DNA of 60,224 bases, counting the filler, from Hausera hauseri (Eukaryota), in assembly GCA_046269625.1 (NCBI GenBank). It is 12 parts of 12 records of this genome, joined end to end, with 100 filler letters (N's around TTAATTAATTAA, not from the genome) between each part and the next. Parts side by side here need not be neighbours in the genome. Positions count along the whole stretch, not along the records: positions 17,834 to 22,725 come from JBJURY010401368.1; 11 more parts are not named here. One strand, written 5' to 3'. A program made the translations under genes and the position numbers. Shown one piece after another: positions 1,481-52,054 of the stretch. The first letter of the stretch is position 1; the number at the start of each line of letters is the position of its first letter. The notes beneath the pieces were generated by a model. It was not told the DNA's origin. It was given only the letters and a program-made list of their open reading frames with translations, and did no database searches.

Positions 1481-1995
1481 GATTGTCGATGCATACTGTT
1501 GTGCCCATTAGGAATGCTCAAATGCTTTATTCTATTTTTCCATTTTCTTATTTTACTGTTTTCTCATTTGTGATTTTACTTCATGTAATCGCCAGCGAAT
1601 AAACAAGTTTTTGACACTTTTATCTCATAATGTCATGGCGTCCACTGGAACAACAATAGTCAGGTTCGCGTTCTTACGTGCAAGTTTTGTTATAATGTTC
1701 CACCCAAAATATTCATCGAATATTTGGCATATAGCCTTGAACTAATACCGAGTGTGTGATTAATATTCGAAATTCATATACTGTGGAATTATGTCGTTGT
1801 ATATATTGTTACGTAAAATTAATGAAAGATAATGAATATTGTTGTATACATGGTGGCAAGAAAGGAATTGATAAAAAAAGAATATTGAATATTGAGTTTT
1901 TTTAAATGTTGAATACTAATGAAATTTTGTTTTGGATTTACTAATAAAACTTCGTGTTGGATTTAATGTCTTCTAATACGTTCCGCATTTAATTA

Positions 1996-3980
1996 ATGAA
2001 ATCACATTGGCGTCAGAAACAACGAAAGATCTCCAAATATTCATACATTGTTGAAATTTACGATAAAACCGTGGACACTAGTCATTATTTATCAATAAAA
2101 TCAAATTATACGATCAACATCAACATTGTATCCACAATCTACCCAATTTACGTAAGGGAGAATGAAATAGCCTCGACAACGGTTATAGTTTTCAAAGTCG
2201 AAAATCAGGATGAAGAAGATTCAGTGTTCATGAAAATTGAAAATCCTCAACCGTATTTTGATCCGTTATCAGATGGAACTCTTGTTACGTCCAATACTAA
2301 TACGGATTATGAAAAAAGACAGTCAATATCGTTAAATATCACTGCCACAGATAACGGAAATCTATCCATAACGAAGACATTTGAAGTATTTGTCAAAGAA
2401 GCAAATGAATTTCAAATTCAACTAAAACCAGATACGATCAAAGTTTATGAAAATGCTCCAGAGAATGAACCCCTAGCAATATTTTCTGTCAAATATTATG
2501 ATATTGGACAAAACATCTCATTCGCTTTGACGGAAAATTATCGAGGAAACTTTAAATTAATTCAAAATCAACTTTGGATTAATGAGAATGAATATTTTGT
2601 TTGGAAGAAAAGTTAGCATATTGTTTAAATTATTTCGAAGATCCCCATGAATTTTTGTTGACTATTCAAGTAACCGTTTCTAGTTCATCATCGAAATCCA
2701 CGGAATTTACTGTGAAAATTATTTTTCTGGGCATAAATCATCCATCCATTGCTTTGTCGTTAAGTTACATTCGCATACATTCCAATGTTACGATTGGAAC
2801 AAATATCGGATATATTACTGTGACAGACGAAGATCCAAATGAAACGTTCTCGTATACTACATCGATTCCGAATTTATTTCAAGTTGATGAAAATTTGCAA
2901 TGGCAAACGGTGGTTAAACTGAAGTACGAAGAACAATCTGCATACGACTTAAATGTGACTTGTTCTGATAGCATGGATCAGTCAATAAATCGAGTTTATC
3001 CCATATTCATAGATTACATGAATGAAGTTCCTGTCACATTAAGCCTAGATGAATATAAAGACAAATTTGATATCAATTCAAGAAAACCGACTACTAAACT
3101 ATTTGTGTGGCATCATTTACAGTTTTAACTCAGATTTGGATGAAAACTTATCAGTTTCTTGTGATGCTGACGTAATCCGATGTGTTAATACACGTTGTCA
3201 ATCTACCTACGAAGTCGGTACCGTGTGCATGACTGATATTCGAGTTAATTATCCGAGTCAGTTGGATCATGAACGAAATCCAGTTATAGCACCTCATGTA
3301 AAAATCATGGACAACAATTTGAAATCTTTGAAATTTATTTTACAACTAAGTGTAACTGATGTGGATAACAACGAAATGGACATAATTTTCAACAGATCGG
3401 TTTCAAATGATATTAAAGTTGCTGAAAATTCAAAAAACATGTTTCTTGGTAACTTCAATATTTCGAATAGTGGTCCACTGAGCAGGTATACGTTTGATGC
3501 GTCAACCGAATTTGGCCAGTACTTCGTAATAAAGAATAAACCGAATTATGGGTATCAGACGATGCAAAATTTGATTTCAAACAAAGTGATTCGATTGTGT
3601 TACTTATTTCAGCTATGTCCGCATCAAATTTTACCAAGCCATATTCAGTAGAAATATCAGATGCTAACGACCAACCGGATTCTTTAGTTTTAAGACCAGC
3701 TTTAATCAAGGAAAACATTCCACCTAGAAATGGATTGTCTACGTTGGTTGTATCAGATCCCGACAATCCAAGACAGAAACAGATATTTACCTTTTTCTTG
3801 TTAAAGAATTTGGATACATTCCATATCAAAGGGAGAACTCTATACCTTCTACGAAGTGCTCAAATTAATTATGAAATGGTAGCACATTACACACAACATA
3901 ACGTATACACCTGTCTATTTCTTACTATCCACAACAGACAGACTCTTTTCACAACAACAAAAAGAGAAAATAAGAAATGA
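1996..3980 (+). pseudogene. Cadherin-repeat (protocadherin/Fat-like) gene fragment, frameshifted
   Basis: Four overlapping ORFs carry cadherin hallmarks: DYE..., ATDNG, V.ENAP, VTDED, LKYEE, LDHE, DANDQP, VSDPD. They are joined by apparent 1-nt indels at ~2600, ~3050 and ~3600. Confidence 0.85.
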
Positions 3981-6746: not shown

Positions 6747-7696
6747 TGTGCAACGAAACAAAGAAAAGTGAAAAACTATATAGCAGAATTAAAACCAATC
6801 GACGTACCAGATAGACCTATGCAGGCTATGTGTATGGATATAGTAGGACCTTTACCTACGACTCATAAAAATAATAAATACATTGTGACATGCGTAGATC
6901 GTTTAACACATTTTGTGGAACTGATCGCACTAATTGACCAAAAGGCGGAAACTCTAGCCGACGCAGTAGTAAGGAAAATCATCTGCAGATACGGACCACC
7001 CGATCAAATACTAACCGATAGAGGAAGAAACTTTACAAGCAAATTATTTGACAAAATTTCTAAAATCTTCAAAATTGAACAACTAACCAGTACCGCTTAC
7101 TACCTTCAGTGAAATGGGATGGTCGAACGTATGAATGCAACGGTTATACGTGTCTTGTCAACCGTAGTAGAGAAGTATCAAAAGGATTGGGATGAATTTT
7201 TAGAAGGAACACAATTCGCTATCAGGATTTACACCATTTTTTATGATGTATGGACGTGAAAAAATTTTGCCTACGGACTTAGGAATGACTCCGTATTACG
7301 CAAATCCAGAAGATTTGGAACCCAACTTCGCAGAAGTTTTACAAATCAGATTACAAAAATGTTGGGATATAGCCAAGACGCTTACTTTTGAGTATCAAGA
7401 GCAATTTAAGAAACAATACGATAAAAAGGCCAAACCTCACGATTTAGAAAACGGAAAGTGGGTTTACGTACACTATCCAGTTGCCAAGAAAGGTACATCA
7501 TTAAAACTTACTCGCACCGGATGAGGACCTTATGAAGTCATTCGAACCACACCAACTACGGTGTACATTAATAAAAATGGCAAATAAGAGGTAGTATCTA
7601 TTAAAAGTTGTTAAAACAGAAATAAAGCCAGAAAGACGTTACAATTTGAGATCTAGCTCATATCAAGATAAAAAGAAAACGAAGCATCCTCCATAA
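6747..7696 (+). pseudogene. Family B Gypsy integrase core and C-terminus
   Basis: MDIVGPLP, TDRGRNF, NGMVERMN, G*GPYEV (GPY/F motif) and ERRYNLR tail; in-frame stops present. Confidence 0.92.
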
Positions 7697-9057
7697 TCAA
7701 TAGACCAATATCGTATGTTCAAATAATTTTAGCACTATCGCTAATTGCCTCCTACATTCCGAGAACACAAGCTAAATGGTGGTACGACAGCTACGGAGTT
7801 CGAAAAAGTGAAACGGAAAAAAAATCAACGGTCAAAGAAAATCAAAAACAAGAGGATGTAAGACGATTACAAGCAATGAGGATCCACTATTACTCACCTA
7901 ACTCTACATGCGTTGGATTTAAAACACGGAAACCACATCGGAATTTTGGAAGGATCCAAATTACCTTAGACGATGTGACAACAAAAGAAACAAAAAAATG
8001 TGACTTTGAGTCCGAAGAACGCACGGAATGTTGCGACACAAATTTCTGACATACTTATAATTTGACTTATCGTCTGTACCTACCAAAATTATCTAGATTT
8101 TATGAAATAAAACCACAATTTTAACTAGTTATTCCTGCTTGGAATAGGCATCACGAAGTAAAACTAAACGAAATATTGCGATCCACTGACCCAGACATAA
8201 TACTGCTAAACGAAAATATCCAGAAAATCTCTGTGAATAAGAAAAGACAATGTCTTCAAGTAAACACTCGGATGGAACTAACCGTCAGTCGCTAAATCAG
8301 TATCGTGTTTGAGACATTAATAGGACCCACTCCGAAAATAGAATATTGTTCCATTCGTGCAGGTGTACAACATCCATGTTGTAAAATACCCGTGAATCAA
8401 GAATTTAAAATAAGATTTGACTTATACGAGTTACGGCTTAATCAACCAAGCATACAATTACGAATCTACTATCCGGAAAATAGAATCTGGAAACTCTCAA
8501 TGAAAACCTCGACTAAAAAGTCGACCGCTCGATTTATCACGACGGACAATATATTTAAAACAAAACTTGAAGACATACCTATCAGATATTTGGTCCATCA
8601 GAATAGAATAGTGTTCTTTGTTGAGGAACGATTAAACTACAATGTAGAAATAAACTGTCGAACCTTATATGACAGACAAAAAGTAAAACTTATACAAAAT
8701 ACACGACAAGTCGAATGTAATACATTAAAACCCCAGACAGAATACATAATACAAATTAATGCAGCAGGAAGGCAAAATCAGACAATCACCTTACACACTT
8801 TAGCAGAAAGAATTTACCCAGATTCACAAAAAGATCAAGACATAGAAAACATAATTACTACAAATCCGATAACACAAAAAACATTTGAATTAACAACTCT
8901 ACCTATTGTACCAATCATCAGAGTATCAGCATTCATCTTATTAATATTGATTGCGTCATTTTATATAATTGCCAAAAATTGCAAAAAACAGCGTAAAAAT
9001 CGTGATAGAAGGATAAGGGTGGTTTACCAACATGACTTATATGATGAAATAACCTGA
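7681..9057 (+). pseudogene. Type-I membrane protein with signal peptide, FN3-like ectodomain, TM and Tyr-motif tail (family B 3' gene)
   Basis: Single frame with 3 internal stops (8047, 8122, 8293). Signal-like VQIILALSLIASYIPRTQA, paired CC modules, FN3 signature LKPQTEYIIQINA, TM IVPIIRVSAFILLILIASFYIIA, basic KNCKKQRKNRDRR, tail LYDEIT. Confidence 0.7.
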
Positions 9058-9130
9058 CAATTACAGACCAGGTTATTCTGTCATCAGATAGTGAAATTAT
9101 TATGTAATGAAACAAAGGTCTGTCTTAGGA

Positions 9131-9155
9131 TTAACCTTATTTTGTTTTATTTCAG
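9131..9155 (+). promoter_or_regulatory. Putative 3' splice site (branch point + polypyrimidine tract + CAG)
   Basis: TTAAC-CTTATTTTGTTTTATTT-CAG, with an ATG 13 nt downstream (ATG at 9169). Confidence 0.55.
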
Positions 9156-9168
9156 ATTGGTGAGTATC

Positions 9169-10718
9169 ATGGCAACCTGCAGCACTTCATACTTGGACAT
9201 CGATGGATTTTTGCAAACAAACGCGACAGTTATAACCCCACATTCCAAGGCCATCTACAGTCAGATACACTTAGAGATACAGAACAAATCATCAATAGAA
9301 TACAATAAAGTAGATGAAATACCCAACAGTTTGAAAGGAATCGTAGAGGAAAATAGAGTAATACGGTTGTATGCCATGCGAAATAGTGAAGATTCTCGGT
9401 CTTACAAATTACGGAATGTGAGTTAGAACGGAACAGTGACATATATATGCATCTAGCAAAAGGCGATATCTATTATAGATTGACAGAACAAAACTGGGAT
9501 TCGAACAAAGGGCGACAGTCTAAATTTAGCACTTTTAAGCTGTGCGGAGAAAGCTTAATTGAGAAAGAAAAAAAATTAAGAGTCTTAGCCCTACCTATGA
9601 GACTCATGATAGAAATCACCTGTGAAGAAATTCCGATGATATCCCTGCCTTCCTTGATATTCCATCAGTACCCAATGGAGAATCAAATAGGACAACATTT
9701 GGGGTCCTATAAACTGGTGCAGGATGGGCGAAACATCCGTATAATTACCACAAACTACAGAGAAGGAGATGATGGAAATTCCATTCCTATTGAAGTTTCC
9801 ATTAGAGACATGAAGAAAATAGAAATATATTCTAGGTTGATTGCCCCTCGAAAAAAAGTAAAGAAAACTTATGCGCAAATAACAAGCATAAAAAAGACGA
9901 ATTGATAAACGGGAAAGACGCAAAAACTGTAGAAACAGAACTAAACTACTGTTTGTATGGTTGCATGGTTGAGGGATTTTAGATCCAAGAACAAATAAAC
10001 AAATAGAAAATAAAGCCTAAAAATATAGCAGAAATTCAAGAATTTTGGGCTCACCCTAAAATCAGAGAAAAATGGACAGTGTAGACCGACACGCTCCTAT
10101 GACCATGGAAACCCATTTCAAGGCCATGATAGAAATTATGATAGGAACTCATTAGAGAATTAATCGGCAATTGTCAACTACAAAGAGAAGCCAATACCTA
10201 CGCGATATTTATGCTACAATCAGATGGGATCACGAGTGGTCACCATCAAACCCTGAAAATAACCTGCAAAGCAGTATGAATCTAAAGGAAGTGAATTCCC
10301 ACGACCGAAAACAATTCCATCCATATTCGCCAACGCGAATTGTCGAACCCAAAAAGGATAACAGTATGCAGATTACAGTATCAAATAAGGATAAAAATAT
10401 ACAATATACTGTTTTAAACCGAGAAGATATTGCCCAACAAGAAGCAAGTACTACCACATATAGATTCCAGGCACCCATAAAAACAAAGAAAATAGAGAGT
10501 CATCAAGGGACTCCAATTAAAAAGCGCAAATTGAGAGGCCCATCTGCAAAAAAGAAAAAGAGATCACTATTCGGATTTCTAAAGAAGAAAAAAAAAGGAG
10601 CAGTTCAAACTATACAAATTCTTACGGAAGTGAATGTTTTCAAAAGGAAGTAGGATAAGGAAATAACAACCAAAGAAACCCAAAAGGACATGGAAGAACA
10701 ACCTAGCATTCTGGTAAT
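9169..10718 (+). pseudogene. Unknown accessory ORF of family B, disrupted, with basic NLS-like cluster
   Basis: ORFs 9091..9426, 9447..9905 and 10171..10653 appear to be pieces of one gene (1-nt slips at ~9408 and ~9895). Contains KKRKLRGPSAKKKKRSLFGFLKKKKKG. Confidence 0.5.
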
Positions 10719-10818: not shown

Positions 10819-11527
10819 CATTTTAGCAGAAACTTTTAACTTGAAAACAAGTGTAGAGGATGAGGATTATTTCAAGAGTTAACATAGACAAACACTAAAC
10901 ATGGAAAACTAAACTCTCTCCAGACATTTTTTTTTAATTTATAAAAATACTAAACGCCTAACAATTTTCGAACTTGGTCCGTGTGTACTCTTCGTCGTAT
11001 TTTTACCAGCTATGTCGCCTGATGCGATGAACATTGGTGATCCATGTATCAGTGAAATTGCAACAATCGCATTCTATAGAACATCAATAAAATCTTTTTT
11101 TTTTATGTGTGGATTTAAAATATTTCACTATTCTTTTTAACATCCCAGAGATGTGAATAACGAAAAAGCGCAACTATTTCAATTTTCGTATTTCGAATCT
11201 TTTTCAAGATTCCGGAATTCAAAGATTCGAATCTCCCGTCCATATATAGTATGTTATGTGGCAACGTTTATTTACCCTTTCGCGTATGTTTGAACATTTA
11301 AAGATTTTCTCAATAATATCTAGAATGTTTGAACTTGCAGATTTGCTCTTTTGTGAGACATGCTCCAAGTAGTTTGCAGGTAAGAATCACCTTCTGATTC
11401 TCTCAGCTGTCCAGTGCAGTTAAGGTGTGCACTGTTCATAATAAGCACTCTGCACAGCACTACTTCAAGACAGGAACTCTCTCTTTAACCTGACCTTTAT
11501 GTAACATCTACCGAACTCAAGATTAAG

Positions 11528-12797
11528 ATGCTATTTTTTTCCAATAATAAACACCTCGATACTTTCAGTGCGACAAACAGAGACTTTACATTGTCTTTAC
11601 CGATATTTATCTCTCTTGCTTCACACCTCGGATTTTTATTTATCGCATCATGGATCTATCCTTAACGTCTATGACTCGCTTTCTTCCTTTTCTTCTCCAA
11701 TCGATCTCACTCTCGACTTTCCTCTACGGGGTGGATCGGACCCCGATCCTCCTTATGCTGAAAATTCCGCTAAGACCAGATCTTATCGACGTCCTGCTGA
11801 TCCTACACCAACTACCTCTCCTAATCTTCCTTGCACAGAGTTCTTCCTAGACAAAACTAATTCGAGTCGCACCTGGCTACAATTCCATTTGCGATGGCTT
11901 AAAGCCAATCACATCACAGATTCTTTCTTGGGGGCGAACAGCTTGCTGCTGCTTCTTCCAGCAAATATCATGCTACAAATCAACAATCTTGCCGATATAC
12001 TCACCTCTTCAAATCCATACGACATGCTATACGAATCAGTCCTACATATTACCGACCCTTCCATTGATAGCATAATACAAAAGTACTTTAATGAGCATGC
12101 TATCGGAACTCAAAAGCCGTCGGATTTCCTTAAAACTGCAATTTCCGGGCTGAGTCCCTTAGGCGTCACTACTACAAACAATGCCGACTCTCTTCGTCGG
12201 TATTTTCTTTCTTCCTTACCCACCTCTATTAGAGCGTTTCTCACTGTAGTAGACGATTCAACGGCACTCGAGAAACTCACATTTCTGGCAGACAGAAGTT
12301 TCGACATCTTGCAATCAAATAGTTCAGAACCACTAGCTGCAGCAACCGCTCACACGCCATCACACGCAGATAACATTTTATTTTCACAACAACTGCAAAT
12401 TATGAATAAACAATTCGATACACTTCAACAAGCAATTTCTGCGATTACAGCCCAACTTAGTGAGTTATCTGTGTCTTGACGAAGTGAAAACCGTGCTTCG
12501 CGTAATCGTAGTCTTTCCAGGCATTCTTTTCCATCCAAATTTCAAAATGGGAGAATAATTTGTTTTTATCGCAACAAATTCCAGAGACGCAAGGAAGTGT
12601 CTTTTGGGCTGTAGATTTTACGACGGACGTTATGCAGTAGACAGCCCTATCTGCATTTATCACACAAAGTATCAGTCCAAGGCCAGGTCGTGTGGGCCAG
12701 GATGCAAATATTATAAAAAGAATTTTAGTTTTTTCTATCTTCGCCTCCTCGCACTTATCATTCCTCTTCTTTTTCCCAACAAACCTCAAAAAACTAA
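11528..12797 (+). pseudogene. gag: UBL-Gag of family A copy 2
   Basis: MLFFSNNKH...(slip)...FYLSHHGSIL...LDFPLRGG-SDPDPP...LRRYFLSSLPTSIRAFL...LEKLTFLADR, then two C-X2-H-X9-C-X3-C-type fingers (the first degenerate). Confidence 0.85.
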
Positions 12798-12860
12798 CAA
12801 TGCGGCCAGATGCGACGGCACATTCGGGTATAGGCAATACCGCTGAATCTTCTGGCCGTC
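12788..12860 (+). promoter_or_regulatory. -1 ribosomal frameshift signal (A AAA AAC + pseudoknot), partly degenerate
   Basis: AAAAAAC at 12788-12794 followed by TAA. Loop GACGGC (12814-12819) is complementary to GCCGTC (12855-12860). The protease is in the -1 frame. Confidence 0.65.
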
Positions 12861-15800
12861 TTAGCACCGCCTCTGCAGTTTTTCTGTTAAAAGCTGCATT
12901 GCTCCCCAACAATGATTCACACATCGACTTCCTCATTGATTCAGGAGCTGCCTTTTCGCTCTTTCCCTTGTTCTTCACTCCTACATCCACTATAGTTTCT
13001 TCTCCACCGCTTTTTACTGCCAGTGGTCAACCGTTGCACATCGCAGGTACTAAGGAACTGATTTTCACATTCGCCAACTTACCAGATAAGTTTGTCTGGA
13101 AATTCCACGTGGCTAATATTAAATCCTCATAATCGGCTCAAATTTTCTGGCCGCACATGAACTGCTAGTTGACTGCAAATATCGCTGTCTGCTGCGCAGA
13201 AACTCCGCTGTGGATGCTAACAAATACCTACCAAACAGCCCAGTAGAAACTCCGCTGTTTTCGGCTGTTAACTCGCTTGTGAAATTGAAAACTTGTTCGT
13301 CGGCTAATAATGGTACAGTTAGTAATTCATTCATTTCTTCCATCACATCAATCGTATCTAAGTCGGTTTTAAAACAACCGAGTAAATGGAGAGCTGATGG
13401 TGGCAGTTACGGTTGTTCTTCACCAACACCATCTACTGTCGCTTCTGATGATACGCCTCAATCATTCTCATCGCTGGAATCCAATCTTAAATCCTTCATC
13501 AAAACTTCTTGTTTTCGCACTCTCAAGAAGGACGTCAATTTCCAGTCGCATACTACAACTTATCACCACAGTCACCGAACACCAAAGACCTATCAGACAA
13601 AAGGTCAGACCACTGTCACCTCGTAGGCAAAAAGCCGTTGAATCGGAGTTCAATGAACTCGAACAGTTTGGCATTATTCGAAGATCCAAATCACCATGGG
13701 CTTCACCATTGCATGTACTAACAAAGAAGATGGCACTTACAGTCCATGTGGTGACTATCGGCAGTTAAACAATTTAACAGGCCTGGATGCTTACCCTTTA
13801 CCTTTCATAAAGAACATCATGAACAGTCTTACCAACACTAACACGTTCTCCACAAGTGACTTGCATAAAGCTTATCATCAAATTCCTGTTGCACCTGATG
13901 ATATTTCAAAAACTGCTGTTATTACTCCATTTGGCCTTTATGAATATATCTTTATGCCATTTGGTTTACATAGTGCTTCCCAAACTTTTCAACGACACAT
14001 TGATACCGTCCTCTCAGNNNNNNNNNNTCAGGCCTTGACTTTGCCTCTACATCTGTTAAACAACATCAAGAACACCTTCGTATTACCTTTCACAGACTAC
14101 ATCAAACCAATGTGCAAGTCAACTTCTCCAAATGTCATTTCTTTCAAAAACGTGTAAATTTCCTGGGTCACATCACCACTTCTCACGGCCACTCTCCACA
14201 ACCGGATCGACTACAACAATTGAAAAACATAACGCTACCAACGACTACTACGGATATGAGGAGTTTCGTGGGCACACTCCACTTCATTCACAAATACGTA
14301 CTCATTGTTCTAAGTTTACAGCACCTTTTGCACATTTATTATCCGGAAAAAAGAGGCAATCAATCCATTGGACTCCTGATTTAGTCACCAAATTTGACCA
14401 CCTACGGGAAGGCCTAAAAACCGTCGAAATACTAGCCTATCCAAAGCCCAAAACAGATCTTATATTTACCACCGATGACTCTACCACAGTTACTGATGCA
14501 GTACTACACCAGATTTCTAATGGCATCGACAAACCATTACAATTTTACTCCCGAAAACTTATACAACCCGAAAGCCGTTACTCTACATTTGACCGTGAGT
14601 TACTCGTCATAGTTCTGGCAGTAAAACATTTCAAACACCTATTTCCCTCGCGTCCATTTGTCATTCAAACAGACCACAAGCCTCTCCTGCATATAATCTC
14701 GTTAAAACAGCCATTATAAAGTCAAGAACGACATATATCATACCTGTATACATTCAGTTTTGTTTTACAATACATTTCAGGCACAGACAATTTGGTAGCA
14801 GATTTTCTATCGAGGTCGGTTGGCTCCATTACAGTTGAGCCGATTTTCTCATCCGAAGTCTTAAAGCCAATCAACCGCCTGCTGACTTCCTTAGCTCTTT
14901 CAAATCCTTCGAAATGATTGATGGCATTGCTGTTGATACGTCGAGTTCCGGTAATAAAAAGATCATTTTAACTCCACCTTTACAAAAGCTAGCTTTCCTT
15001 TATACACATTCACTGCATCATCCGGATTCTAAAGCCACCTTTCGCCTGCTTCAACGTCATGTAATTTGGCCATCAATGAGCAAAGATGTACATGACTGGG
15101 TTAAGGAATGTGTAGCCTGTCAAAAATACAAAATCAACAAACACGTTAAACCGCCGCTTTATCATTTCCCTTGTACATCACGTTTTCATACGGTTCATCT
15201 TGATCTCGTTGGTCCTTTACCTTCTGACAATGGATATCAATATATCCTTACAATGATGGATCGTGCTTCTCGCTGGCCTGAAGCCATTCCTCTCCGTTCA
15301 AAGATCACTGATTCAGTAGCTGATGCATTTATAAAAATCTGGATCAGTCGTTTTGGTTCCCAACGTTACAAAAAAACGTATCAAGGTCCACAATTTGAGT
15401 CGAAACTCTTCAAATCACTTGTGAAACGCTTGGGGATATCCCATTTTCATATTACACCATATCATCCTCAAGCAAATGGCCTGCTTGAAAGGTTCCATCG
15501 AACAATGAAGATTTCTTTAAAAATCTTGGCTGACGCTCATCGTAATTGGACGTCTATTCTACAATTTGTTTTACTAGGATGGAACAATACACCCTCTACC
15601 ACTACCGGTTGTGCTCCAGCCGAGGCACTCTTTGGGACTCCAATTCGAGCTTTATTTGAACTTTCTGATCTCGACGACAACCCCACAGACGAAGTCATTC
15701 GTGCAGCACAATCTCACTTCGTCGAGGTCATCTCGGACTCCTTCTGCAGTCTCTCCAACAATAACAATTCGTACATTCCGAAGGATTTGTACACCGCAAA

Positions 15801-16333
15801 GTTTGTGTGGCTGAAAGATCAATCGCCTTCGCGTTTTAAACCTTAATATATTGGTCCATACAAACTGCTGAATCTCTTACCTCATACAGCTACCATCTTA
15901 CGCCAAGACAAACCTTACAACGTTCATATTTCGAATTTGAAGCCTGCTTTCTTCATTGATGACAATTTGGATGTCAATTTTACCTCCAGTTCAAACTCAG
16001 CTTTTACTCCTTCTGGTCTATCCACAAACTTTCTCCACGACTTTGTGCCGTTACAGCAATCACTTTTCTGTCACACTCAATCATCATCATATCATCCTTC
16101 CATCTCGTCTCCCTCCCTGTCATCATCACTACCTACTTCATCTCCATTACCTATATCGACTGTTTCATCACCTTCAATTATATAGCCTTTTGTTTGACTC
16201 ATTTCCTTCATCACCCTCATCAGATTCATTACAAGCAACATCAAGTAAGGCACGCAGAGTGACATTTAGCACATTCAGAAAAGAAAAGTTCTTTGATGGT
16301 ACACAATGCCTGATACATACTAAAAACGATTAG
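12788..16333 (+). pseudogene. pol: pol (PR-RT-RH-INT) of family A copy 2
   Basis: Fragmented ORFs 12692..13132, 13397..13768, 13696..14157, 14132..14719, 14914..15846, then an S/P-rich tail ending KARRVTFS...HTKND. A 10-N gap lies at 14018-14027. Confidence 0.93.
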
Positions 16334-16426
16334 GCGCCCAACATTGTTAATTTGTTGCGATTCATTGTTTTCATTCGTCCTATTCTTATCATTCTTTTCA
16401 CTTTTACATAAATTCTCTTCTGCCAC

Positions 16427-16435
16427 AGGGGGTGA
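16427..16435 (+). promoter_or_regulatory. Putative polypurine tract preceding 3' LTR (TG at 16436)
   Basis: AGGGGGTGA|TGTGATG about 95 nt after the pol stop; no matching 5' LTR found. Confidence 0.55.
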
Positions 16436-16569
16436 TGTGATGCCGTGGTCGCGGATTTAACTCGATAGCTGTAGAACCTATATAACGTCAGATAAAACGA
16501 TACAGTACCAACAGTGTAAAATTATCATAGAGCAAAACAAAATATAACCACGAAGAACTCAAAGATCTT

Positions 16570-16750
16570 CAGTATTGTGACGGCAGAAATCGTGGAAATA
16601 AACGAACCACTTGTCTACGCAAATTCACTATTAAATTCGAAATATCGACTTGATATTGTTAGTGAGTATTAAAAGTCATTTAGTTTTAGCTAATCCCGAA
16701 ACTTGACTATGAAGTTGAAAACGTCGTCCTTATCACCGCAATCAATTAAC
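16570..16750 (+). pseudogene. Possible very decayed cadherin-repeat remnant
   Basis: EIVEINEP ... (LVLANP)KLDYEVENVVLITAI, with a frameshift and a stop. Confidence 0.3.
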
Positions 16751-17733
16751 AGAGATGACAGAGTAAACGCAAATCTTCATTGGTGAGATCAATCAATTCA
16801 TTAAATAAATTACTTCGTTCCAATAATGAAAATGAAAGAACGACTTTGAAATATACAAACAAATTCTCTTCATCGATCTTCTACAATCTGAGTATTGTCG
16901 CTTACTCAGCAATGAGTTCTCAATAGAACAGTTCATACTTTTGTCCAAAGTAAAGGAAATGGATAAATCGCTATCAGTCGATGATGAACCCCTATCACGT
17001 GAATTTAGGAAAAGTAGTTCAGTTGGCAGACGTTTATATCTAGTAAATTTGGATATACCATTACATGCCTTTAATCTAGCTCCATCGAACTCAGCAAAGG
17101 GATAAAAAAATCAGACTCCTCGCAAATGACGAAAGTAGGGAAAAGAGGTGCATGTCGTGCAGCTCGTTTCAACCAAAATTGTTACGTCATTTCATACTTT
17201 TACGACTTTCCCTTCTAGCAGGCAGAATATATAAATAATATTAAAAATATAGACAGATGTACTTGTTATTGATTGTTATATACAGATTTTGTCTTTTGTA
17301 AATAAATATAACTGTATAAAAAATTGAAAAATGATTATTGATAAAGAATTTTTGAATCTAAAAAATAAAACTTGTTAATCGGCCCTTTCTTGTGGATTTA
17401 TTATAACTGTGGATTTATTTTACCCTTCACATGAAATTAAAATCATTGTTGTTAATAATGAAAGTTATTGAATTATAGAAAATTTTGATGACACTGATTT
17501 CTGACTTGATTTATGCGATTATGTAGGTCAGTTTTCAAAAGGTATGAAAATTAAGATTGATGAGCCATATTGATAGGAGAATGTGGTGCCCACGGCGGCC
17601 GGCGCCCTCTGGCCCATTCGGTTGGGCGCGGTTGGGCCTCCGTCGCCGGCACGTCGGGCCCATAGTCGAGCCCGATTTTACTCCTCCAAAGAGTATCCAT
17701 CATACCAAGGTTCATCGCATTCCTTTGTTGTTT

Positions 17734-17833: not shown

Positions 17834-19057
17834 CATCATAAAAACGGCATAAATCCTGTTGCTAGATGTGGCGCAATATTAATTGCAAATTGCGTTCCTT
17901 CCAAAAATTCATCCCAATCTTTTTGGTCCTTAGCCACTACTGTTGACAGTATACGTATGACGGTAGCATTCATCCATTCGACCATTCCGTTACATTGAGG
18001 ATGATATGCAGTAGTTGTTAATCGTTCGATTTCGAATATCTTAGTGATTTCCTCGAATAGTTCGCTGGTGAAATTTTTTCCTCGATCTGTGGGTATCTGT
18101 TCTGGGGGCCCGTATTGGCAAATAATCTTTCTTACTACGGCTTCTACTAAAGTCTCGGCCTTTTGATCTATCAATGCTATCAACTCGACAAAATGAGTTA
18201 GGCGATCGATACACGTCAAGATATACCTATTGTTCTTGTGAGTCGTAGGAAGAGGTCGTACGAATCCATTCACATGGCTTGCATGGGCCTGTCGGGTACA
18301 TCAATTGGTTTCAATTTGGACATATAATTTTTCGTCTTCTTTTGTTTAGTCGCACATACTTCACAGGTGTTTATCCAATTTTTCACATCAATATAGATAC
18401 TAGGCCAAAATTATTTATTCATTATTCTTTCTAATGTTTTTTCCAAGACATATGTCCGGCTAAGTATGAATCATGTTTTGACATTAGTACTTCAGTTCGT
18501 ATACTTTTGGGATAACTATCAATTTTCTTTTTTTCCCTTCGTAATATAAGGTGTCTCTTTCGCTCTCGTCATTTAAGACATAATATTTGTGTCCATGCCT
18601 GTGTAAATGTTTCTTTAACTGTCGTCCTTTTGATGTAATATCCCTTTCAGTAAATTCTATAATCTGCTGGATAACTTTATCCTTTCTCTGCTCTGTTGAA
18701 ATCTTGATGGCCCTATCTATTGTTAACGCGCGTTGGCGGTTTATTATCTCCTCAAGTTGACTTTTCTTCATTACAGTAATTGCGCTTGTTTTAGTCTTTA
18801 ATCTTGATAGTGCATCTGCGTCTACATGTTTGTTCCCTGCCTTATATTGAAATTCAATGTTGTAACTTGATATTTCCTTGATCCATCTGTTAAGTCTGCA
18901 TGTAGGGTTATCTACTCGCCCTTTTAAGGTTTTGACGGCCTTGTGGTCCGTGACAATTATAATTTTCTACCCATATACATAAACACTAAAATGTCGAAGT
19001 GCTTCTTTTACAGCTAGAGTTTCTAATTGGGTAACAGAATAATTTTTCTCGACCTTC
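17834..19057 (-). pseudogene. pol: Family B RNase H C-half + integrase (copy with internal deletion)
   Basis: Collinear with 27524-28750: EKNYS..LETLAVKEAL, TDHKAV, HVDADALSR, PTTHKNN..DRLTHFVEL, YHPQCNGMVE. Homology to pol stops abruptly at 19057. Confidence 0.92.
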
Positions 19058-19899
19058 TACTACTACATCGTAGCGATTCATCATTTCCTTTTTTATAAAT
19101 TTTAGTCCATGCTGATCCGAGATTAATATAGTAGGTGTAGGGTGTTCCGATACATCTTCGCGTGTCCTTGAATTAGTCTCCGATTTGTCTACATATTGTT
19201 TCCAGGTGGTTTCATTAAACTTTAGCTCCTTAATTTTGATAAAGTTACAGCTTCTTCCAGAGGGAGATTCCCATATTATAACAGAACTTCTAAAAGCACA
19301 GGATTCGTCTTGTAAGTAGCATTTCTGATTCTCAGTGTGTAACTTAGTAACACTATGAAATATTACCTTCTGTAATCGCATTTCTGATTCGAAGAAATTC
19401 ACAACTATCACATTTGGTTCTAATCCTTTTCCGGTATCGTATTCTGCTCCATTACAATGTTCGCTATGCATATTCAGCCTTCCAGCTACTACTTTGTATG
19501 CTCTGATTATCTTCCCTGGTTGCATTTCTAATTTCATATTGTCCCATTGTACTCTTCCAGACTCTTTAGCTTGTTTGCAGTGTTGGCGTTGTAAATTCAT
19601 TGGAATTAGTGGAGTAGTTGGCTTGATTATGGAGTAATGTCCGTGTATTAGTCCACAGTGGAAGATACTATGTGATCGTCTCAACATGCACTCCATTCCG
19701 TCTAACGATATCAATTCTTGCTGTTTGATACAGGAAGTAACTTTTCTCTCGTTTCCAATTTGTGCGGTCGGACATCCTCGCATACTTCCAGGTCTATTAA
19801 GGAATATCTCTGTCCTAATTTAAACTTATCGCAATCATAGACGGTTACCGCGCTAATGTGCTTCATTAGCATCATTAAGGCAAGCAAGGTAATTAGCCA
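19058..19899 (-). pseudogene. env: Class III (chuvirus/herpes gB-like) envelope glycoprotein, signal + N-terminal half
   Basis: WLITLLALMMLMKHISA|VTVYDC...YSLIDLEVC...EC.L.RS..IFHCG..GH...C..A..SG...C.GAEY...CYLQDESC....IIW......C. This Cys/motif pattern is typical of chuvirus-like glycoproteins. Frameshift at ~19735. Confidence 0.75.
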
Positions 19900-21759
19900 A
19901 TTTGATTCATTTTTTCGACCTCCTACGTCTGACGTTGTCAGGCTACGTAACATATAGTCGAGTTTATTGTTGTTTCGTTTGTCTTTTTCCTTGTCAAATA
20001 GTCTTGCCCAATTTACTTCGTCAGGCATTCTTGCTGCTTTCCGTGCTAAGCTTATAGCCCTATTGATCTCATTCTCTTGATTAGGATTGATTTTGATAGC
20101 TAAATATAGTAATACTTTTCTCAATTCTTCATTCGTGTTTTCTACCACGATCTTTTCTATTACTGACTCGCCGGATAAGTTACTTTTTGATAGTTTGAAA
20201 CGTGAACTTCTAATCATTTTGGCTGCATCGAAAATTATCTTTTCTTTATCATCCATCACATCTCGAAAACTAGAATAATTCACAATTCATATTAAATTTT
20301 TCATTAATTCGTTTAATTCCTCGTTGTCTGGGCTAAGAGTCGGAATCGACATCTGTCTCAATTCTCTAATTAATTCTCCGTTGTAATCCACTTCTTCTCG
20401 CATTTTTCTATGTCTGCCTACCGGGCGTTTTGGTCTTGGACCCTTAGCGGTTATTTGACTCAGTGGTACTAAATTTGTGTCGTATTGTTCCTTATATTCG
20501 TCTGTTTGTAAATACTCAAAATATAGTGCAGCGTCTCGAACTCCCATGATTTGTCCTACGCATTGTTCTGTTTTGGCTTTATGTGTAGCTTCTTCTTTTG
20601 TCTGTTTGTTAGCTATTACTACTATTATCCAATATGTTTCGTCAGGAATAATCCCAACGTCTGTTAGTTGTTCTAGGTCATCGAGTATTCTACCTCTAAA
20701 ATAAAATCTGTAGTTTAACTCGTTCGTTCCACCATTGTTTACTACCCATTCTCTTACGTCCTTTACGTAGGAGTATGTAGTCAACTCGCATTCTTTTTCG
20801 TCCATCCATTCGGATGACACCATTACCTTCATCGTCACCACAGGTTTAGCCCTCAAGATTTTAACGCAATTCCTTATCAAAAGTTTCGGCACCGCACTAT
20901 AAATCGTGTTTTCGCTAGATAATTTAGTTAAAGTTGGAATAAATTGTCCTAATTTATTCTCAGTAATATTTACATTAATTAGTTCAATCAAATCCCTTTC
21001 AGTTAGCGCTGAATACAGTAGTATATCCACATTGAATCTCCTGTTCTGCGGACATATTTCTATTGCGTTTAGTTGTACTGCAGTTATAGGTTTTCCGGCA
21101 AGTATTGCGTCGAAGTATGCATCCCATTCGGATTCATTTCCGGCATCCGGAAGTCGATCGTCCGCTAAAGCCGTATTGGCTCTTTGAATATTTTCCTTAA
21201 TTTCCTTTAATCTAGGCTGTATTTCTTTCATTTGCGTACTTCGGAAACCTGCTCCGTTTCCACAGGCATACTGTATCATTTTCAGTAATTCGCTTAATTC
21301 GTTCGGGCCGACCAGCCCTTTCTGGTGATAATCTGTCAATTCAAGGATCACATCCTTTTGCCATCTTTGTACGAATTCTCGTTTATTCTTAATCTCTAAT
21401 TCGGTAAAAGCATATTTGTTTCGATAGACTTCGAGCTCCTTTGTTATTTTCTCTAACTTTGTTGCTTTTTGTTTCGTCTTGATACATATTTCTTCTACTT
21501 TCTGTATCTTAGGCATCAATTGCATCATCTGTTCATCACTGATTTCTGCCATTTCCACCAATAAATAGGCTAACTCATACAGCTCATTTATAACCTTTGA
21601 ATCAGGGTCTACTGCGTCCGATAATTTCTTTACTAACTTGTATTCCTGAAAACTAAAATGTGGGTCGTTCCCTATTTCTATCAACTTGGTATGGAAATTC
21701 TGATCTGATCCGGCCATCCATTCTTGAGGTTTGTGCAAAAACTTTATTGCGTTTGTCAA
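19900..21759 (-). pseudogene. Family B N-terminal polyprotein segment: helical/coiled region + internal ubiquitin-like domain (20614-20832)
   Basis: ORFs 20287..21759 and 19711..20283 share a frame, separated only by TGA at 20287-20289. UBL: MKVMV...VKDVR...YRFYFRGRILDDLEQLTDVGIIPDETYWIIV. Confidence 0.65.
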
Positions 21760-21889
21760 CGTATCTCGATGCCCTGGATAAATGTCCAGTATTTCAATGT
21801 CTTGTGCAAAATTTCGTTGATTGGTTTTCCTGTTAAGTATTGTACTACTTCTAGTCGAACAATCTTTAACTTTGAGTTCACATCATAAA

Positions 21890-22687
21890 TCATATTCCGT
21901 TTTCCGTAAAATTCGTCTCTTCGATCAGTTTGTATATTTTCTCCATCATCAACGCTTCTCGTTCCCTTTCCGTAAATTTTAGTTGTCGTAGCGCTTCGAA
22001 TTGAGTACGGATGTCGGTTTCTATCCGTATTGTGCCAAGGTCATGCGCACTTTCTTCTAAATGTTTTATTACCGTTGGTTCGCTTTGTGGAAATTCTGTT
22101 TTGCGGTCTTCTACCAATTTGCTTAATCGCGTTATTAATTCGTACCATTCCGACAATTGATTTGCGATGATTGGTTTTGCTGTTATAGCTCTATCTAACA
22201 TCTTATGTACATCTCTTAACTCATCGTTCGGCCCTCTTAGAAAGTTCATAATCCGGGCGATATAATTAAACTCGTTTTTATACTCGTCCAATTCTACTAT
22301 ACAAGCCTTTATTACGTATTGAGTATCCTCGTTGTTTGGGAACATAATTCTCAAAAATTCGTTAAACCCGTCCGGATCTCTGTCATATGCCGGCAGGTTT
22401 AGGGAATCGAACGTGAAAATTTCCAGCTTCTGCGCTACTGGTGGATTATCTGCTGCTATATTATTTACGTTTTTTAGCTCTAAATTTGCTTTATTTACTT
22501 TAGGTTTCTCAAGTGTAATTTTAAACTGTTTATTTTGCATGACAACTTTTAGTTTGTTTCTATTCTCGGAGTTTGAACGTTTATCTACTTTTTCTGTTTC
22601 TCTATATATGTTTCGACGTGTCTCACGTATAGGTGAATTGTCCTTTAGTATATGATTTATTCCTGACCTATCAATGTTTGTTCTCTA
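21890..22687 (-). pseudogene. Putative Gag/capsid-like ORF of family B
   Basis: LNLPAYDRDPDGFNEFL resembles the LP.FDG.P....EF motif at the start of LTR-retrotransposon capsid domains. The frame is open about 50 codons upstream of ATG 22540. Confidence 0.45.
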
Positions 22688-22725
22688 TTAAGTTTTGCTT
22701 ACTTATTCCCGTAAAAATAGCCTAT

Positions 22726-27523: not shown

Positions 27524-30500
27524 ATGAAGAATGGGGTAAATCCTGTCGCTGGATGTGGCGTGGTATTAATTGCAAATTGAGTTCCTTCTAAAAATTCATC
27601 TCAATCCTTTTGGTCCTTTGCTACTACTGTTGATAATATGCGTATGACTACAGCATTCATCCGTTCGACCATTCCGTTACACTGAGGGTGATATGCGGTA
27701 GTTGTTAGTCGTTCGATTTCGAATATTTTGGTGATCTTTTCGAATAGTTCACTTGTGAAATTTCTTCCTCGATCTGTGAGTATCTGATCTGGGGGGCCCG
27801 TATCGGCAAATAATTCTTCTCACTACGGCTTCTGCTAAGGTTTCGGCCTTCTGATTGATTAATGCTATTAACTCGACAAAATGAGTTAATCGATCAATAC
27901 ACGGTAAGATATACTTATTGTTCTTGTGAGTTGTAGGAAGAGGTCCTACAATATTTATCGACATGGCTTGCATGGGCCTATATAGCACATCAATAGGTTT
28001 TAATTCGGTCATGTAGTTTTTCGTCTTCTTCTGTTTAATTGTACACACTTTGCAGGCATTTACCCCGCTTTTCACATCAATGTAGATACTAGGCCAAATG
28101 TATTTATTCATTATTCATTCTAATGTTTTCTTCCAGGACATGTGTCCGGCCAAATATGAATCACGTTCTGACATCAGCACTTCGGGGCGAAAGCCTTTTG
28201 GGATAACTATTAGTTTTCTTTTTTTTCGCTCGTAATATAAAATATCTTCATTGCCCTTGTCATTTAAAATGCGATATTTATGTCCATGTCTGTGTAAATG
28301 TTTCTTTAACTGTTGTCCCTTTGATATGATATTCCTTTTAGCAAATTCTATAATCTGCTTGATAACTTTATCTTTCCTTTGTTTTATTGGGATTCTAATT
28401 GCTTTATTCATCCTTAAGGTGCGTTGGCGATCTATTATTTCTCCAAGCTGACTTTTTTTCATTACTGTAATCGCACTCGTTTTAGTCTTTAATCTTGATA
28501 GAGCATCGGCATCTACATGTTTATTCCCTGGATTATACTGAAATTTGATATTATATCTGGAAATTTCTTCGATCCATCTGTTGAGTCTACATGTTGTGTT
28601 ATTTTCTCGACCTTTCAAAGTCGTAACGGCCTTGTGATCGGTGACGATTATAATTTTCTGCCCGTATGCGTAAACGTTGACGTGGCGAAGTGCTTCTTTT
28701 ACGGCTAGAGTTTCCAATTCGGTAATAGAATAGTTTTTCTCGGCCTTCCTCAAGGAACGTCCTCCATAACCAAATCGGGTGCTCTAATTCTTCATATTTT
28801 CTTTTCTGCGCCAATTCATATCCAATGCCTTTATTACTGGCGTCTGTCTTGATTATGAAAGGTAAGTTAAAATCTTGATATCGTAAAACAGGTTCACTTG
28901 TTAATATCTTCTTCATTTCGTCGAAGGCTTTCTGTTCGACATCTGTCCATTTCCATTTAATTTCTTTCTTCAGCAAGCGGTATAGAGGTGCATTAATTTT
29001 TGAATTATCTGGTACATAGGTTGCGTAATATCCGCAGAGTCTCAACCAGTGTCTTAATTCCTTCTGGTTTTGTGGTTCCATGCAGTCTGATATTTTATTT
29101 AGCAGCGATTTATCTGGCTTCGATCCTCCTTCTACAACTATATGGCTAAGGTAGGATACTGCGTCTTGAGCCCATTTGCATTTCTTCGGATTCAACTTCA
29201 ATCCGGCTTGTTCCAATCTCATCAATGTATGTTCGATATACTTTAAATGTTCCTCCTCGATCCTTGATGCTATCATTAAGTCATCTAAATACACAAAAGC
29301 ATGATCCAATCCCACTAGCATTTTGTTCATCATTCTGGTAAATATGACTGGTCCAGTAGTAATACCGAATGGTATGATGTTAAATTCGTAAACAGCATCG
29401 TGCGTTTTAAATGCTGTCTTATAACGGTCTTTATCTTCAATCTCCACTTGCAAATATCCGGATTGTAAGTACAGAGTGGTAAACCATTTTGCTCCTGAGA
29501 GTCTGTCTAAAGCCTTTTTGACCGACAGTAGTAAAAAGGAATCTTTCATCAAGAGGTTATTTAAAGCTCTGTAATCAATACAAAATCGATGTTTCGTAGT
29601 ACTTTTCTTCTTAACCATGAGGATTGGTGAATACCAAGATCTATATTTGAGCCTAATTATATCTGCTTTAAGCATTCGTTCGACTTCCTTCGTTATTTCG
29701 GGTCTTAGAGAATGTGGCGAAGGGTACCATTTTGGCATCTTTTGGTATTCCAAGTTTATTTCTTTATTCGAACCGGGCTTTTTCTTGATCGGGATTGTCA
29801 GTTTTAACGCTTTTGCTGTACCGATATCTTTGTCCTTAGCAAAAATCGATTTGTAGCGGCACAATTGTTTGTAAAATCGACAATAAGATTCGGGAGAAAA
29901 TTTAGTTTCGACATGAGGTGGAAATTCGGCATACTTGTAACGCTTTTCTTCAATAGTTATCAACGACACCCTATACATGTCTCCCAAGGTAATATAAGCA
30001 TGAAGCTTGACGGGAGTCGGCGCATTATTAACTATTTTGATCAGCACTCGACCGGAGTGTACTCTTGTTAATACATTGCTGGGTAATATATTCGGATCTA
30101 ACGTATCTCTTGTTTCTAAATGTACGGATTGATCGTCATCTTGCTGTATCTGGGCATAAATTATCATTTCTGTTCTCGGTAGAATGTTTTCGTCAACTGT
30201 TATCCACACCTCTCCGAATTTCCTATCCTTAGCAATTTTCACGCCTTTATTTGGTCTGATTTCGATTAACTTCCCTGTTTGTAAATCGATTGCTATATTT
30301 GGTAATCTTTTCAGTAGATCGCATCCTAGAACTACATCATCGGTTAATTGCTCCATGACTGCAAATTCTTGATGGAAAAACTGTTTAACTATTTGGACTT
30401 CTGGGTTCCATTTAAACATCGGTTTCGACATTTGACCAAAAGCTCCTGTACTTCCTGGATCTTTCGTAGACGGTGGGTATAATTGTCCTCTCAGTGTTTT

Positions 30501-30734
30501 AGGTATTGAATCATTTTTGATGTAAGACATCTCGGATCCTGTATCGATTAAGGCATAAACTTCCAAATCCTCAATTATTATTTTGGTGAAGGGTCTTCCT
30601 TCTATTATTGTTCCGATACAGTTTGATGCAACTTTTTGGCGTTTAGTTGCTGATATTTTATGTCCGTTGATTCGTATTTCTGGAGAGGATACTATATTTT
30701 CCGACAGCTGTCTTAATGCTTCGTATGTATATAA
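27524..30734 (-). pseudogene. pol: Family B pol: PR - dUTPase-like spacer - RT - RH - INT
   Basis: ALIDTGSE, RFCIDYRALN, SGY.QV, PFGI, VYLDD, TDAS..GIG, EKNYSITELETLAV, GHMS..KT, IVGPLP. The frame is open from 30734. Confidence 0.95.
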
Positions 30735-31491
30735 CTAGTTGTTTCCTATGTGCAATTTTTCCGCTTCATGTGTACTAATTAACGGTTCTTGATTGTTCGT
30801 GTGTAGTTCAGTATTCTGGAAAATTTTTAACCTTGGATTGTCCCAAACCGTTGATCTAGTTTCTATATTTTGAGGTTCTCTCGGAGAATACAACATCTTG
30901 GAAGCATCTGTGGATTGTCGGTAGCACATATTCCGTAGAATCCCGTAACGTTTCGTTCCTTCATAAGGGTCTTCTACATTAATTTTCCTTTTATAGATTT
31001 CCGTCTGATATAATCTCATTGATTGTTTGTCGCAGTCTTCATGGAATGGGGCGGTAGGGGGTATCATTGGCAATGGTGCTTTAATGACAGAGTATGTCTC
31101 ATGTCTGTTTATTCCTGAAAGTACTTCTCCTCCCTTAGTCTCGTCATTATCTGAATTATTTCTTCGTGTATTATGTTTCGTAAATTTCTGCTTCTGCAAG
31201 AATATAAGTCTTCTTCTTCTTTTACGATTATAATGACCGACATGACGTTATACGTCGGATTTCAATCTGTTTTCTTCGTATGCCTTTAAGAATTTTCCAA
31301 AGGGCGCTATGATTACAGTCAAAATTTTGCACGAAAATCCGGTCAACGTAAATATTTCATACCCATTAATTACGGCTTGGATAAATGCCTTGATCATTTG
31401 TATTAGAAAATATATATCTAAGAATCCGAAAATTAAGAATTTCCCCAAATTTTGTATAGTATTTCCGTGGTTACGCGATGGTAATGATGCT
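30735..31491 (-). pseudogene. env: Envelope C-terminus (membrane-proximal/TM) + cytoplasmic tail, in frame with pol
   Basis: (KIWG)KFLIFG..IY..IQMIKAFIQAVINGYEIFTLTGFSCKILTVIIAPF matches the chuvirus-GP C-terminal pattern W..F..FG...IK..I...I.GY....G.S..LL, followed by RKRRRR. ORFs at 31448, 31199 and 30566 share one frame. Confidence 0.7.
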
Positions 31492-31662
31492 AATAATGCG
31501 CCGACTCCCGTAAAGCTTCATGCTTATAATATTTTGGGAGACATGTATAGAGTGTCGTCAATAACTACTGAAGACAAGTCTTACAAGTATGCCAAATTTC
31601 CACCTGATGTTGAAACTAAGTTTTCCCCCAAATCTTATTGTCGATTTTACGAACAATTGTGC
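31492..31662 (+). repeat. Inverted, diverged duplicate of pol segment 29859-30029
   Basis: NNAPTPVKLHAY.ILGDMYRVS.IT.E.K.YKYA.FPP.VETKFSP.SYCRFY.QLC on the opposite strand. Confidence 0.9.
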
Positions 31663-42672: not shown

Positions 42673-43149
42673 AGTCATAGTGGTGGCGCCCGAGTCCGCG
42701 GCACCACAATTTGAGGATCTATTACAACTTCTAATGACAATGGATTGCTTACATTCTTCAGACACTGAGGTACTTTTGTTGTTACATTTACATGATGATG
42801 AAATCAAAAAACCCATTCGATTTTGCAATTGTTAAAAAATGATATGAACGAATAAACATATGAGCGCTATCTATTTTATGTTCATATTCAGAACAAACTT
42901 CAGAATTGTCGTCTTTAAATTCTCGTGTTAGCGGCTTAATGCCGTCATAGAAACTTTCGAGTTCCTTCAACAAATCTGCAGACTGTTTCATATTTTAGTA
43001 TGATGTACATTTGCATTTTTTGTGTGAATAAATGAATATTAATTATTGATAATACATGTTTTTTTTAATTTTTGAATAAAGGATAGAATAGTTGTTATTT
43101 CTTGAATGTACTTATCACCGTTTGAGCGTTTAATGTACAGAATCAAACA

Positions 43150-46100: not shown

Positions 46101-46685
46101 TCTAGAATTCTTTTCAAGAACACTAACACCACCAGAAACTAGATATTCAACTTTCGATCGAGAACTACTGGCAATAGTTTTTGCCTTAAAGCATTTTTCC
46201 ACTTACTTACAGCTCGTCATTTCGTTATACAGACTGATCACTAACCTTGGATTAATATAATGGCAATGAAACACCTTCCACTAGACAAGAACGACAAATT
46301 TTATATTTTTCCATATTTAACTTCGACATTAAACACATTAACTGTGTTAACAATCTAGTTGCCGATTTTTTATCAAGGTCAGTTGGTTCAATCAATTTTA
46401 TGCCGATTTTCACTCACACACAACTTCAACAAAACCAAACATCTCAAGACATTATTAATTCTTCCAAATCTTGCAATATTGTAGACGGCATGGCCTTATG
46501 CACGTCCAAACCAGGAAAGTCTAAAATAATACTAGCACCTCCCTTGTAAAAACAAGCATTCAACAGCGTACATTCGCTACACCACCATGGTGCTAAGACT
46601 GCTTTTCTCTTACTCCAACGACATGTAGTTTGGCCGTCAATGCGTTTTGATGTGCAGAAATGGGTTAAGGAATGCATGGCTGGCC
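43150..46685 (+). mobile_element. Family A copy 3: UBL-gag, PR, RT, RH, start of INT
   Basis: YLIFNGFVL...PRIRGG-MLSSPT (43236-43253), LRRYFLNALP, two CHCC-type fingers, FLIDTDA, LYIDD, YSTFDRELL. Confidence 0.92.
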
Positions 46686-51763: not shown

Positions 51764-52054
51764 TTGGCGTCGTACTTTTCCATTGATGAACATACCAGTG
51801 TCATCAGTCTTGAAAAGCCGGTTGATAGAGAAACCGTTGGTGATACTGCCACATTTTTATCGGTCTTTTTGACACAGGAAATCCGCCTCAAAAGCCAGCA
51901 ATTATTAATAATTGTCACAGCTATAATTGATGATAACGATACACCTTCAAGATTTAAAAAAGATTTTTATACAAAGAATTTGTTTTTGCCTATTCATCCT
52001 GATGCTATCATTATTCAGCTTAGAATTAGTGATCCTAATGAAGATACAATGTAA
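51764..52054 (+). pseudogene. Cadherin-repeat fragment
   Basis: YFSIDEHTSVISLEKPVDRET...IIDDNDTPSRF...IIQLRISDPNE. Confidence 0.75.

Follow-up and report, generated by a model that had tools for sequence, protein, structure and literature searches.

Giant gypsy-like LTR retrotransposons of the Burro/GYPSM1 kind, which reach 25-30 kb with their LTRs (Jurka 2007, Grohme 2018, both as cited in PMC6431247), have been described from planarians as carrying an ORF1 that codes, in this order, for Gag, MATH/TRAF, Ubi2/SUMO-like, BCL2-like, Env, protease, dUTPase-like, RT, RNase H and integrase domains (PMC6431247). The Burro ORF spans 4,873-5,140 aa and includes ankyrin repeats, its Env gives matches to mononegavirus fusion proteins (Arkhipova & Yushenova 2019, PMC6431247), and decaying copies are found in Dugesia japonica (PMC6431247); BURRO1 is expressed and controlled by piRNAs, and smedwi-2 RNAi raises its expression (PMC8532177). 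GAG-ENV-POL elements with a gB-type env have also been reported from nematodes, bryozoans and flatworms (Chary & Hayashi 2026, PMC13524379), with up to 215 copies in Schmidtea and with env ectodomains that are flanked by a signal and a TM or by two TMs.

The DNA analysed here (60,224 nt; hereafter the window) consists of 12 fragments of 4.0-6.9 kb each with N-spacers between them, and because these are separate fragments joined together, the genuine context of the env piece is 17834-22725 only. We consider it highly probable that this fragment holds a defunct, internally deleted copy of a Ty3/gypsy retrotransposon that is present in high copy number and likely belongs to the Burro/GYPSM1 kind (Table 1). 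In its intact relatives, the frame that runs from the Gag-side domains to Pol also codes for a class III fusion protein, which lies between the two, and the polyprotein is predicted to pass through the ER membrane and to be processed by signal peptidase. The core of this layout is already published, since an env in frame between gag and pol is part of the account of planarian Burro (PMC6431247), and so the novelty implied by an earlier note on this DNA, made from the sequence alone, has to be given up; the copy itself is just another decayed member of its family. What can be added here is small, namely a signal-peptidase site that is conserved (12/12) and a second signal-ectodomain-TM protein that follows the integrase (3/3). 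At the level of titles and listings, literature searches brought up no paper on a signal-peptide processing model or a post-integrase protein for Burro; membrane segments may have been annotated before, in Grohme 2018 or Sacco 2022.

Table 1. Features of the element family in the window (positions along the whole stretch)
Feature	Position	Strand	Evidence
Third copy: 3' part of integrase	6747..7611	+	81% amino-acid identity to integrase core of the 17834-22725 copy
Third copy: remnant of second membrane protein	7672..9057	+	signal-like segment at 7693, TM at 8914, in-frame stops
C-terminal part of RNase H and Ty3/gypsy integrase core	17842..19056	-	PF17917, PF00665, tblastn; broken by stops and frameshifts
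Env-to-RNase H junction	19057..19058	-	blastn match ends at 19057; contig ends; out of frame
Class III (chuvirus/gB-type) ectodomain, N-terminal half, 222 aa	19058..19723	-	PF24664 in relatives, structure model
Mature Env N-terminus (YDC...SL...C)	19723..19848	-	tblastn/blastp against relatives
Internal signal peptide (hydrophobic core and c-region)	19849..19899	-	sole segment with hydropathy of at least 1.5 in the 720-aa frame
Helical region where Burro has its BCL2-like domain	19900..20286	-	blastp alignment with P0001
Polyprotein N-terminal part, 531-aa stop-free frame	20287..21882	-	ends in TGA 20289-20287
Ubiquitin-like segment (weak)	20617..20841	-	PF00240, E 0.012 on a chosen slice and 0.088 with the whole ORF, below curated cut-off
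Stop-free frame, 264 aa	21890..22684	-	X1 and X2 contigs of the family lie over it
Sister copy: protease, RT, RNase H, integrase (broken)	27526..30734	-	Pfam, tblastn
Sister copy: Env membrane anchor	31251..31490	-	PF24664 profile positions 553-601, E 7.5e-6, below cut-off

Like Burro, the family reported here has an Env that shows homology to mononegavirus fusion proteins and is encoded in frame after the Gag side and before protease-RT-RNase H-integrase, possible ubiquitin-like and then BCL2-like positions before Env (the former call being weak in this copy and the latter uncertain), relatives of up to 4,800 aa with ankyrin repeats (P0016), and decayed copies with stops and frameshifts (compared with PMC6431247). 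Unlike Burro, the present copies are known from fragments in which Gag, LTRs, MATH/TRAF, BIR and dUTPase were not seen; for the dUTPase-like domain, the stretch 29700-30299 of the sister copy has no Pfam match at E 1, while the published Burro call came from HHpred. The published description, in the text section on these elements in PMC6431247, in turn gives no signal peptide, topology or post-integrase membrane protein. The elements are also like the HSV/gB-type errantiviruses of the Platyhelminthes C1a group (PMC13524379) in combining a Ty3/gypsy pol with a gB-type env upstream, and Schmidtea env rows in the supplement to that paper resemble P0013 and P0005, by eye only; its main text, which treats intact copies only, makes no mention of polyprotein, ubiquitin, Bcl, ankyrin or fibronectin. 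Judged from domain order and the by-eye likeness to the Schmidtea rows, membership in Burro proper is probable.

One family occupies three of the fragments (blastn): 17834-22725, a sister copy in 27524-31662 and a third copy in 6747-10718. Several fragments hold Ty3/gypsy pieces as judged by Pfam, and those in 10819-17733, 42673-46685, 51268-55952 and 56053-60224 belong to different families, with 63-69% DNA identity among some pairs. Two public runs (X1 and X2, analysed as contigs) contain the family, the word share being 0.26 in X1 and 0.06 in X2. As 15,293 X1 contigs cover all 30 bins of the fragment 17834-22725, the upstream ORFs are part of the high-copy family, and since some X1 contigs carry indels near the frame breaks, those breaks are not common to all copies. 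The copies in the window retain the env and pol frames except at breaks. Elsewhere in the element, frameshifts and stops of several kinds interrupt the frames, which makes a changed genetic code an unlikely reading of the single TGA.

The earlier note had taken the glycoprotein for a chuvirus/gB-like fusogen, a view that our comparisons support. Env starts at 19848, with YDC at 19839-19831 and HCG at 19660 (minus strand), and relative P0001 aligns by tblastn to 19902-19750 in one frame and to 19786-19058 in another; the env frameshift falls within about 19786-19725, after which the frame is open to 19058. The env piece 19723-19058 has neither a direct Pfam match (PF24664 included) nor a PDB sequence match, a word-indexed homolog search with the env half returned nothing among longer proteins, and no related loci were found in the viral contigs or the metagenome contigs searched. 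Among 1.84 billion proteins, 15 relatives were recovered at E 0.001 or better (20-30% identity), and each of them passes the cut-off for PF24664, Monjiviricetes_fusion (15/15). The Foldseek check that had been proposed for the env half was run with a model from a 12-row alignment (pLDDT 85.5) and revealed class III similarity: its top match in BFVD is a chuvirus-related glycoprotein (E 2.1e-10, TMq 0.55), with identity to chuvirus G of just 12-18% in the top structural alignments, and its PDB list is headed by herpesvirus gB, where the best E is 0.004 and none reaches 0.001. In the VIA structure comparison all of the top 10 rows are class III fusogens, the best one, HSV-1 gB, having a Z of 7.3 and an rmsd of 4.5 over 129 residues, which taken alone is middling. 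By the fold class of its model, Env is a class III (chuvirus/gB-type) fusion protein, of which the 17834-22725 copy lacks the C-terminal half.

The same PF24664 family and fold occur in chuvirus/Monjiviricetes glycoproteins and in mosquito BEL/Pao elements with a chuvirus G (Dezordi 2020, PMC7642597), but in contrast to the latter, as far as described there, the pol order here is that of Ty3/gypsy and env comes before pol. On gene order, assignment to BEL/Pao was rejected: in the sister copy and the relatives the fusogen lies 5' of the protease, not 3' of the integrase. In having Gag, Pol and Env in one polyprotein, the layout is like that of Atlas virus (PMC9094657), where this polyprotein has 2,828 residues; Atlas virus, however, is a BEL/Pao and not a gypsy element, and its Env is class II, phlebovirus-like and placed last (PMC9094657).

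As for gene order, intact relatives each have one ORF of 2,600-4,800 aa that runs signal-Env-TM-protease-RT-RNase H-integrase. Env follows the Gag side and precedes Pol within a single frame in P0005, P0009, P0010, P0011 and P0016, the last being a cluster member whose 4,844-aa ORF has ankyrin repeats and several proteases. In the sister copy, the Env anchor and the downstream protease-RT share one frame with two stops between them, and the Pol order protease-RT-RNase H-integrase of this copy and the relatives is that of Ty3/gypsy. That env lies 5' of pol, as the earlier note had it, therefore follows from the sister copy and the intact relatives; the junction at 19057/19058, which had been put forward as independent evidence for this order, does not serve as such because it is out of frame and unbridged in the contigs listed (see below). 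One might object that Env is made alone, from a spliced message or an internal start at the signal peptide, in which case the in-frame link would matter less. In three of the 15 relatives (P0006, P0013, P0014) the gene call begins inside the signal peptide, and most gypsy-type env genes are separate ORFs (PMC6431247, as far as its survey goes). These three short calls may, however, be gene-caller artefacts, 8/15 relatives are stop-free for 144-892 in-frame residues before YDC, the frame continues into the protease in 4/15 and into RT-RNase H-integrase in 2/15, and Burro ORF1 is continuous as published (PMC6431247), so that a separately made Env is, to our minds, quite improbable.

Very improbable, too, is the idea that the glycoprotein is an endogenised chuvirus fragment which by chance sits beside an unrelated gypsy pol, or that it stems from a non-planarian lineage that reached the same layout independently. 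It draws on chuvirus glycoproteins being the best structural matches and on the GAG-ENV-POL elements not being monophyletic, with members also in nematodes and bryozoans (PMC13524379), but every relative with context is a retrotransposon polyprotein and the sister copy ties the Env anchor to pol. Moreover, it sits badly with the integrases. A midpoint-rooted tree of eight rows (the three window copies, P0005, P0009, P0016 and two other gypsy integrases from the window) unites the three copies in a clade and groups them with P0005, P0009 and P0016, apart from the two others. The three integrases are 40-43% identical to those of the polyprotein relatives, as measured on full cores for copies 1 and 3, compared to 26-29% with the two other gypsy integrases of the window.

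Among the relatives, P0016, P0010, P0011 and P0005 carry within a single ORF several aspartyl-protease-like domains together with ankyrin repeats and C2H2 fingers, and P0016 has 7 aspartyl-protease-like stretches and a further signal-like segment before the main protease. The NCBI entry of P0009 (HBK71150.1), a retrotransposon polyprotein of animal type, assigns it to a metagenome-assembled genome of Flavobacteriaceae, which is probably contamination.

The earlier note had Env entered through an internal signal peptide, a hydrophobic stretch in frame with more than 600 upstream codons and a single TGA. We count 661 codons in frame upstream of the signal with exactly one stop (TGA 20289-20287), and predict cleavage between 19849 and 19848, three residues before YDC. 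The cleavage site was compared in the window sequence and the 11 relatives that have the YDC motif and enough sequence upstream of it, leaving out P0003, P0004 and P0012, which have no motif, and P0007, which begins at the motif. At the site three residues before YDC, the (-3,-1) rule for small residues holds in 12/12 sequences, a pattern that means conservation and not 12 independent trials because the sequences are related, as against 1-4/12 at eleven other offsets and 9/12 at one, where the count is biased by motif picking and the window sequence does not fit. The hydropathy segment and the conserved cleavage-site pattern together argue for a signal peptide in front of Env, as had been proposed.

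Exactly four hydrophobic segments are found in P0009: the signal (368), the Env anchor (931), a second signal (2257) and a second anchor (2539), which would place Pol in the cytosol. The topology put forward in the earlier note (cytosolic N-part, luminal Env, cytosolic Pol) fits these four segments; beyond that it is one that we, too, infer, and going by hydropathy only it is likely. P0005 has the four segments of P0009 plus two weaker ones and P0016 has nine, and in both the sister copy and P0016 the Env anchor is followed by another hydrophobic segment, a weaker one; should such extra segments (sister copy, P0016, P0005) span the membrane, this simple topology would fail. In the model that we propose, translation would start in the cytosol with Gag, the ubiquitin-like and the BCL2-like domains, until the internal signal inserts and is cut three residues before YDC, leaving Env luminal and the upstream piece anchored in the membrane. 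The Env anchor would then stop transfer, so that protease, RT, RNase H and integrase stay cytosolic, to be freed by the element's own protease, and after the integrase a second signal would direct another type I membrane protein to the lumen. Such processing would explain how a luminal Env and a cytosolic Pol can come from one ORF, and it names an exact cleavage site that can be checked by proteomics. The 17834-22725 copy makes none of these proteins because of its stop, its frameshifts and its out-of-frame deletion.

Alpha-, flavi- and hepacivirus polyproteins have internal signal sequences, envelope release by signal peptidase, alternating topology and class II fusogens. If the topology outlined above is right, they would offer an analogy in processing only, without homology.

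At 19057/19058 the env frame switches abruptly into RNase H sequence, as the earlier note had seen, and the sister fragment 27524-31662, which aligns with 17850-19057 at 82.7%, ends its match exactly at 19057 (blastn). The claim that env is thereby joined to RNase H does not carry over to protein: the junction is out of frame and past it the env frame runs just 23 more codons to a stop (18988-18986), so there is no Env-RNase H protein, and a fusion of this kind was rejected. Relative to intact polyproteins, the junction lacks 1,028 (P0009), 1,314 (P0005) or 2,303 (P0016) residues, equivalent to about 3-7 kb, and the RNase H-integrase part beyond it is cut by the fragment end. On 18958-19157 there are 766 contigs in X1 and 71 in X2, and none of the 16 pieces listed, out of these 837, bridges the junction, so the contigs provide no support across 19057 of the kind that had been looked for in reads. 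The junction is either a rare deletion or an assembly error. That the assembly fused two members of this very repetitive family into a chimera, which would leave the remaining reading unchanged, seems rather unlikely to us, yet it deserves to be taken seriously: besides the lack of bridging pieces, summed X1 contig depth drops from ~30,000 to 459-589 at 19056-19076, loose ends accumulate on both sides, with contigs diverging from the window sequence at 19058 (X1: 24; X2: 4) and at 19079-19080 (X1: 31; X2: 5), and the window was built from short fragments. A deletion that only one out of a great many copies carries would look alike, however. X1, with 0.26 of the words, is probably from another individual; many other skip joints were seen in the family's contigs, and it is contigs that were compared, not raw reads, with a bridging count that covers 16 listed of 837. 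The sister fragment opens with a 172-nt inverted copy (31491-31662) of its own pol (29859-30030; 90%), either another rearrangement or an assembly artefact.

On the Gag side, the 264-aa frame has no Pfam match and is likely an upstream part of the same polyprotein, with a frame break between it and the 531-aa frame. Residues 381-711 of the read-through frame align with P0001 (22%, E 1.3e-6 by blastp), to which the Env start contributes partly, and CCHC knuckles are found upstream of Env in relatives P0001 and P0010. The ubiquitin-like segment was missed by a profile from four relatives, and P0001 has a ubiquitin-like Pfam match (E 0.031) at the corresponding place. The helical region that follows scores E 1.3 with a P0001/P0002 profile, though this is the best of 640 window peptides; its structure model has a pLDDT of 42.7, and the protein Atlas leads for it are all under 0.9 and point to another family. 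Just before the signal, relative P0002 matches PF00452 (Bcl-2) at E 0.00096, below cut-off, and since Pfam finds nothing BCL2-like in P0009 or P0005, the domain may not be universal. With the ubiquitin-like/BCL2-like region of P0001, a word-indexed homolog search returned P0001 itself alone, and an upstream-region profile, made from a poor alignment, gave chance matches only against PDB. A helical stretch of the 531-aa ORF (~21390-21245, minus strand) is weakly like the post-integrase region of P0016 (blastp E 0.6), owing to a common mobile domain or to chance.

Downstream of Pol, hydropathy reveals a signal, an ectodomain, a TM and a tail after the integrase in all three relatives that extend well past it (P0005, P0009, P0016). 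In the window, the third copy has an ORF downstream of its integrase (8296-9054, plus strand) with a weak FN3 match (PF00041, E 0.13), and a post-integrase profile from the same three relatives ranks this ORF best of 640 window peptides (E 0.0085, the next being 0.47). How gB-type errantiviruses enter cells is described as unexplained, given that the gB of herpesviruses depends on partner glycoproteins (Chary & Hayashi 2026, PMC13524379), and as a guess, the post-integrase membrane protein may be a candidate partner of the fusogen. Taken further, Burro-like elements could encode a two-glycoprotein entry apparatus in one signalase-cut, multi-pass polyprotein, with the gB-type fusogen before Pol, an FN3-like type I protein after the integrase as attachment or triggering partner, and the leftover Env signal anchoring the BCL2-like domain, a scenario that we regard as speculative and on balance doubtful. 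Beyond the remnant in the third copy, 9058-10718 (plus strand) contains additional frames without stops, 122-171 aa in length; Pfam matches none of them, and they may represent an accessory ORF that belongs to this element.

Elsewhere in the window, a sequence like LMBR1 membrane proteins (52600-53350, plus strand; PF04791, E 2.4e-15) with in-frame stops adjoins a gypsy fragment; with these stops and no obvious introns it looks like a processed pseudogene, and a word-indexed homolog search with it gave no match. Cadherin repeats (PF00028) are scattered across several frames of 1993-3980 (plus strand) and represent either exons or a decayed copy.
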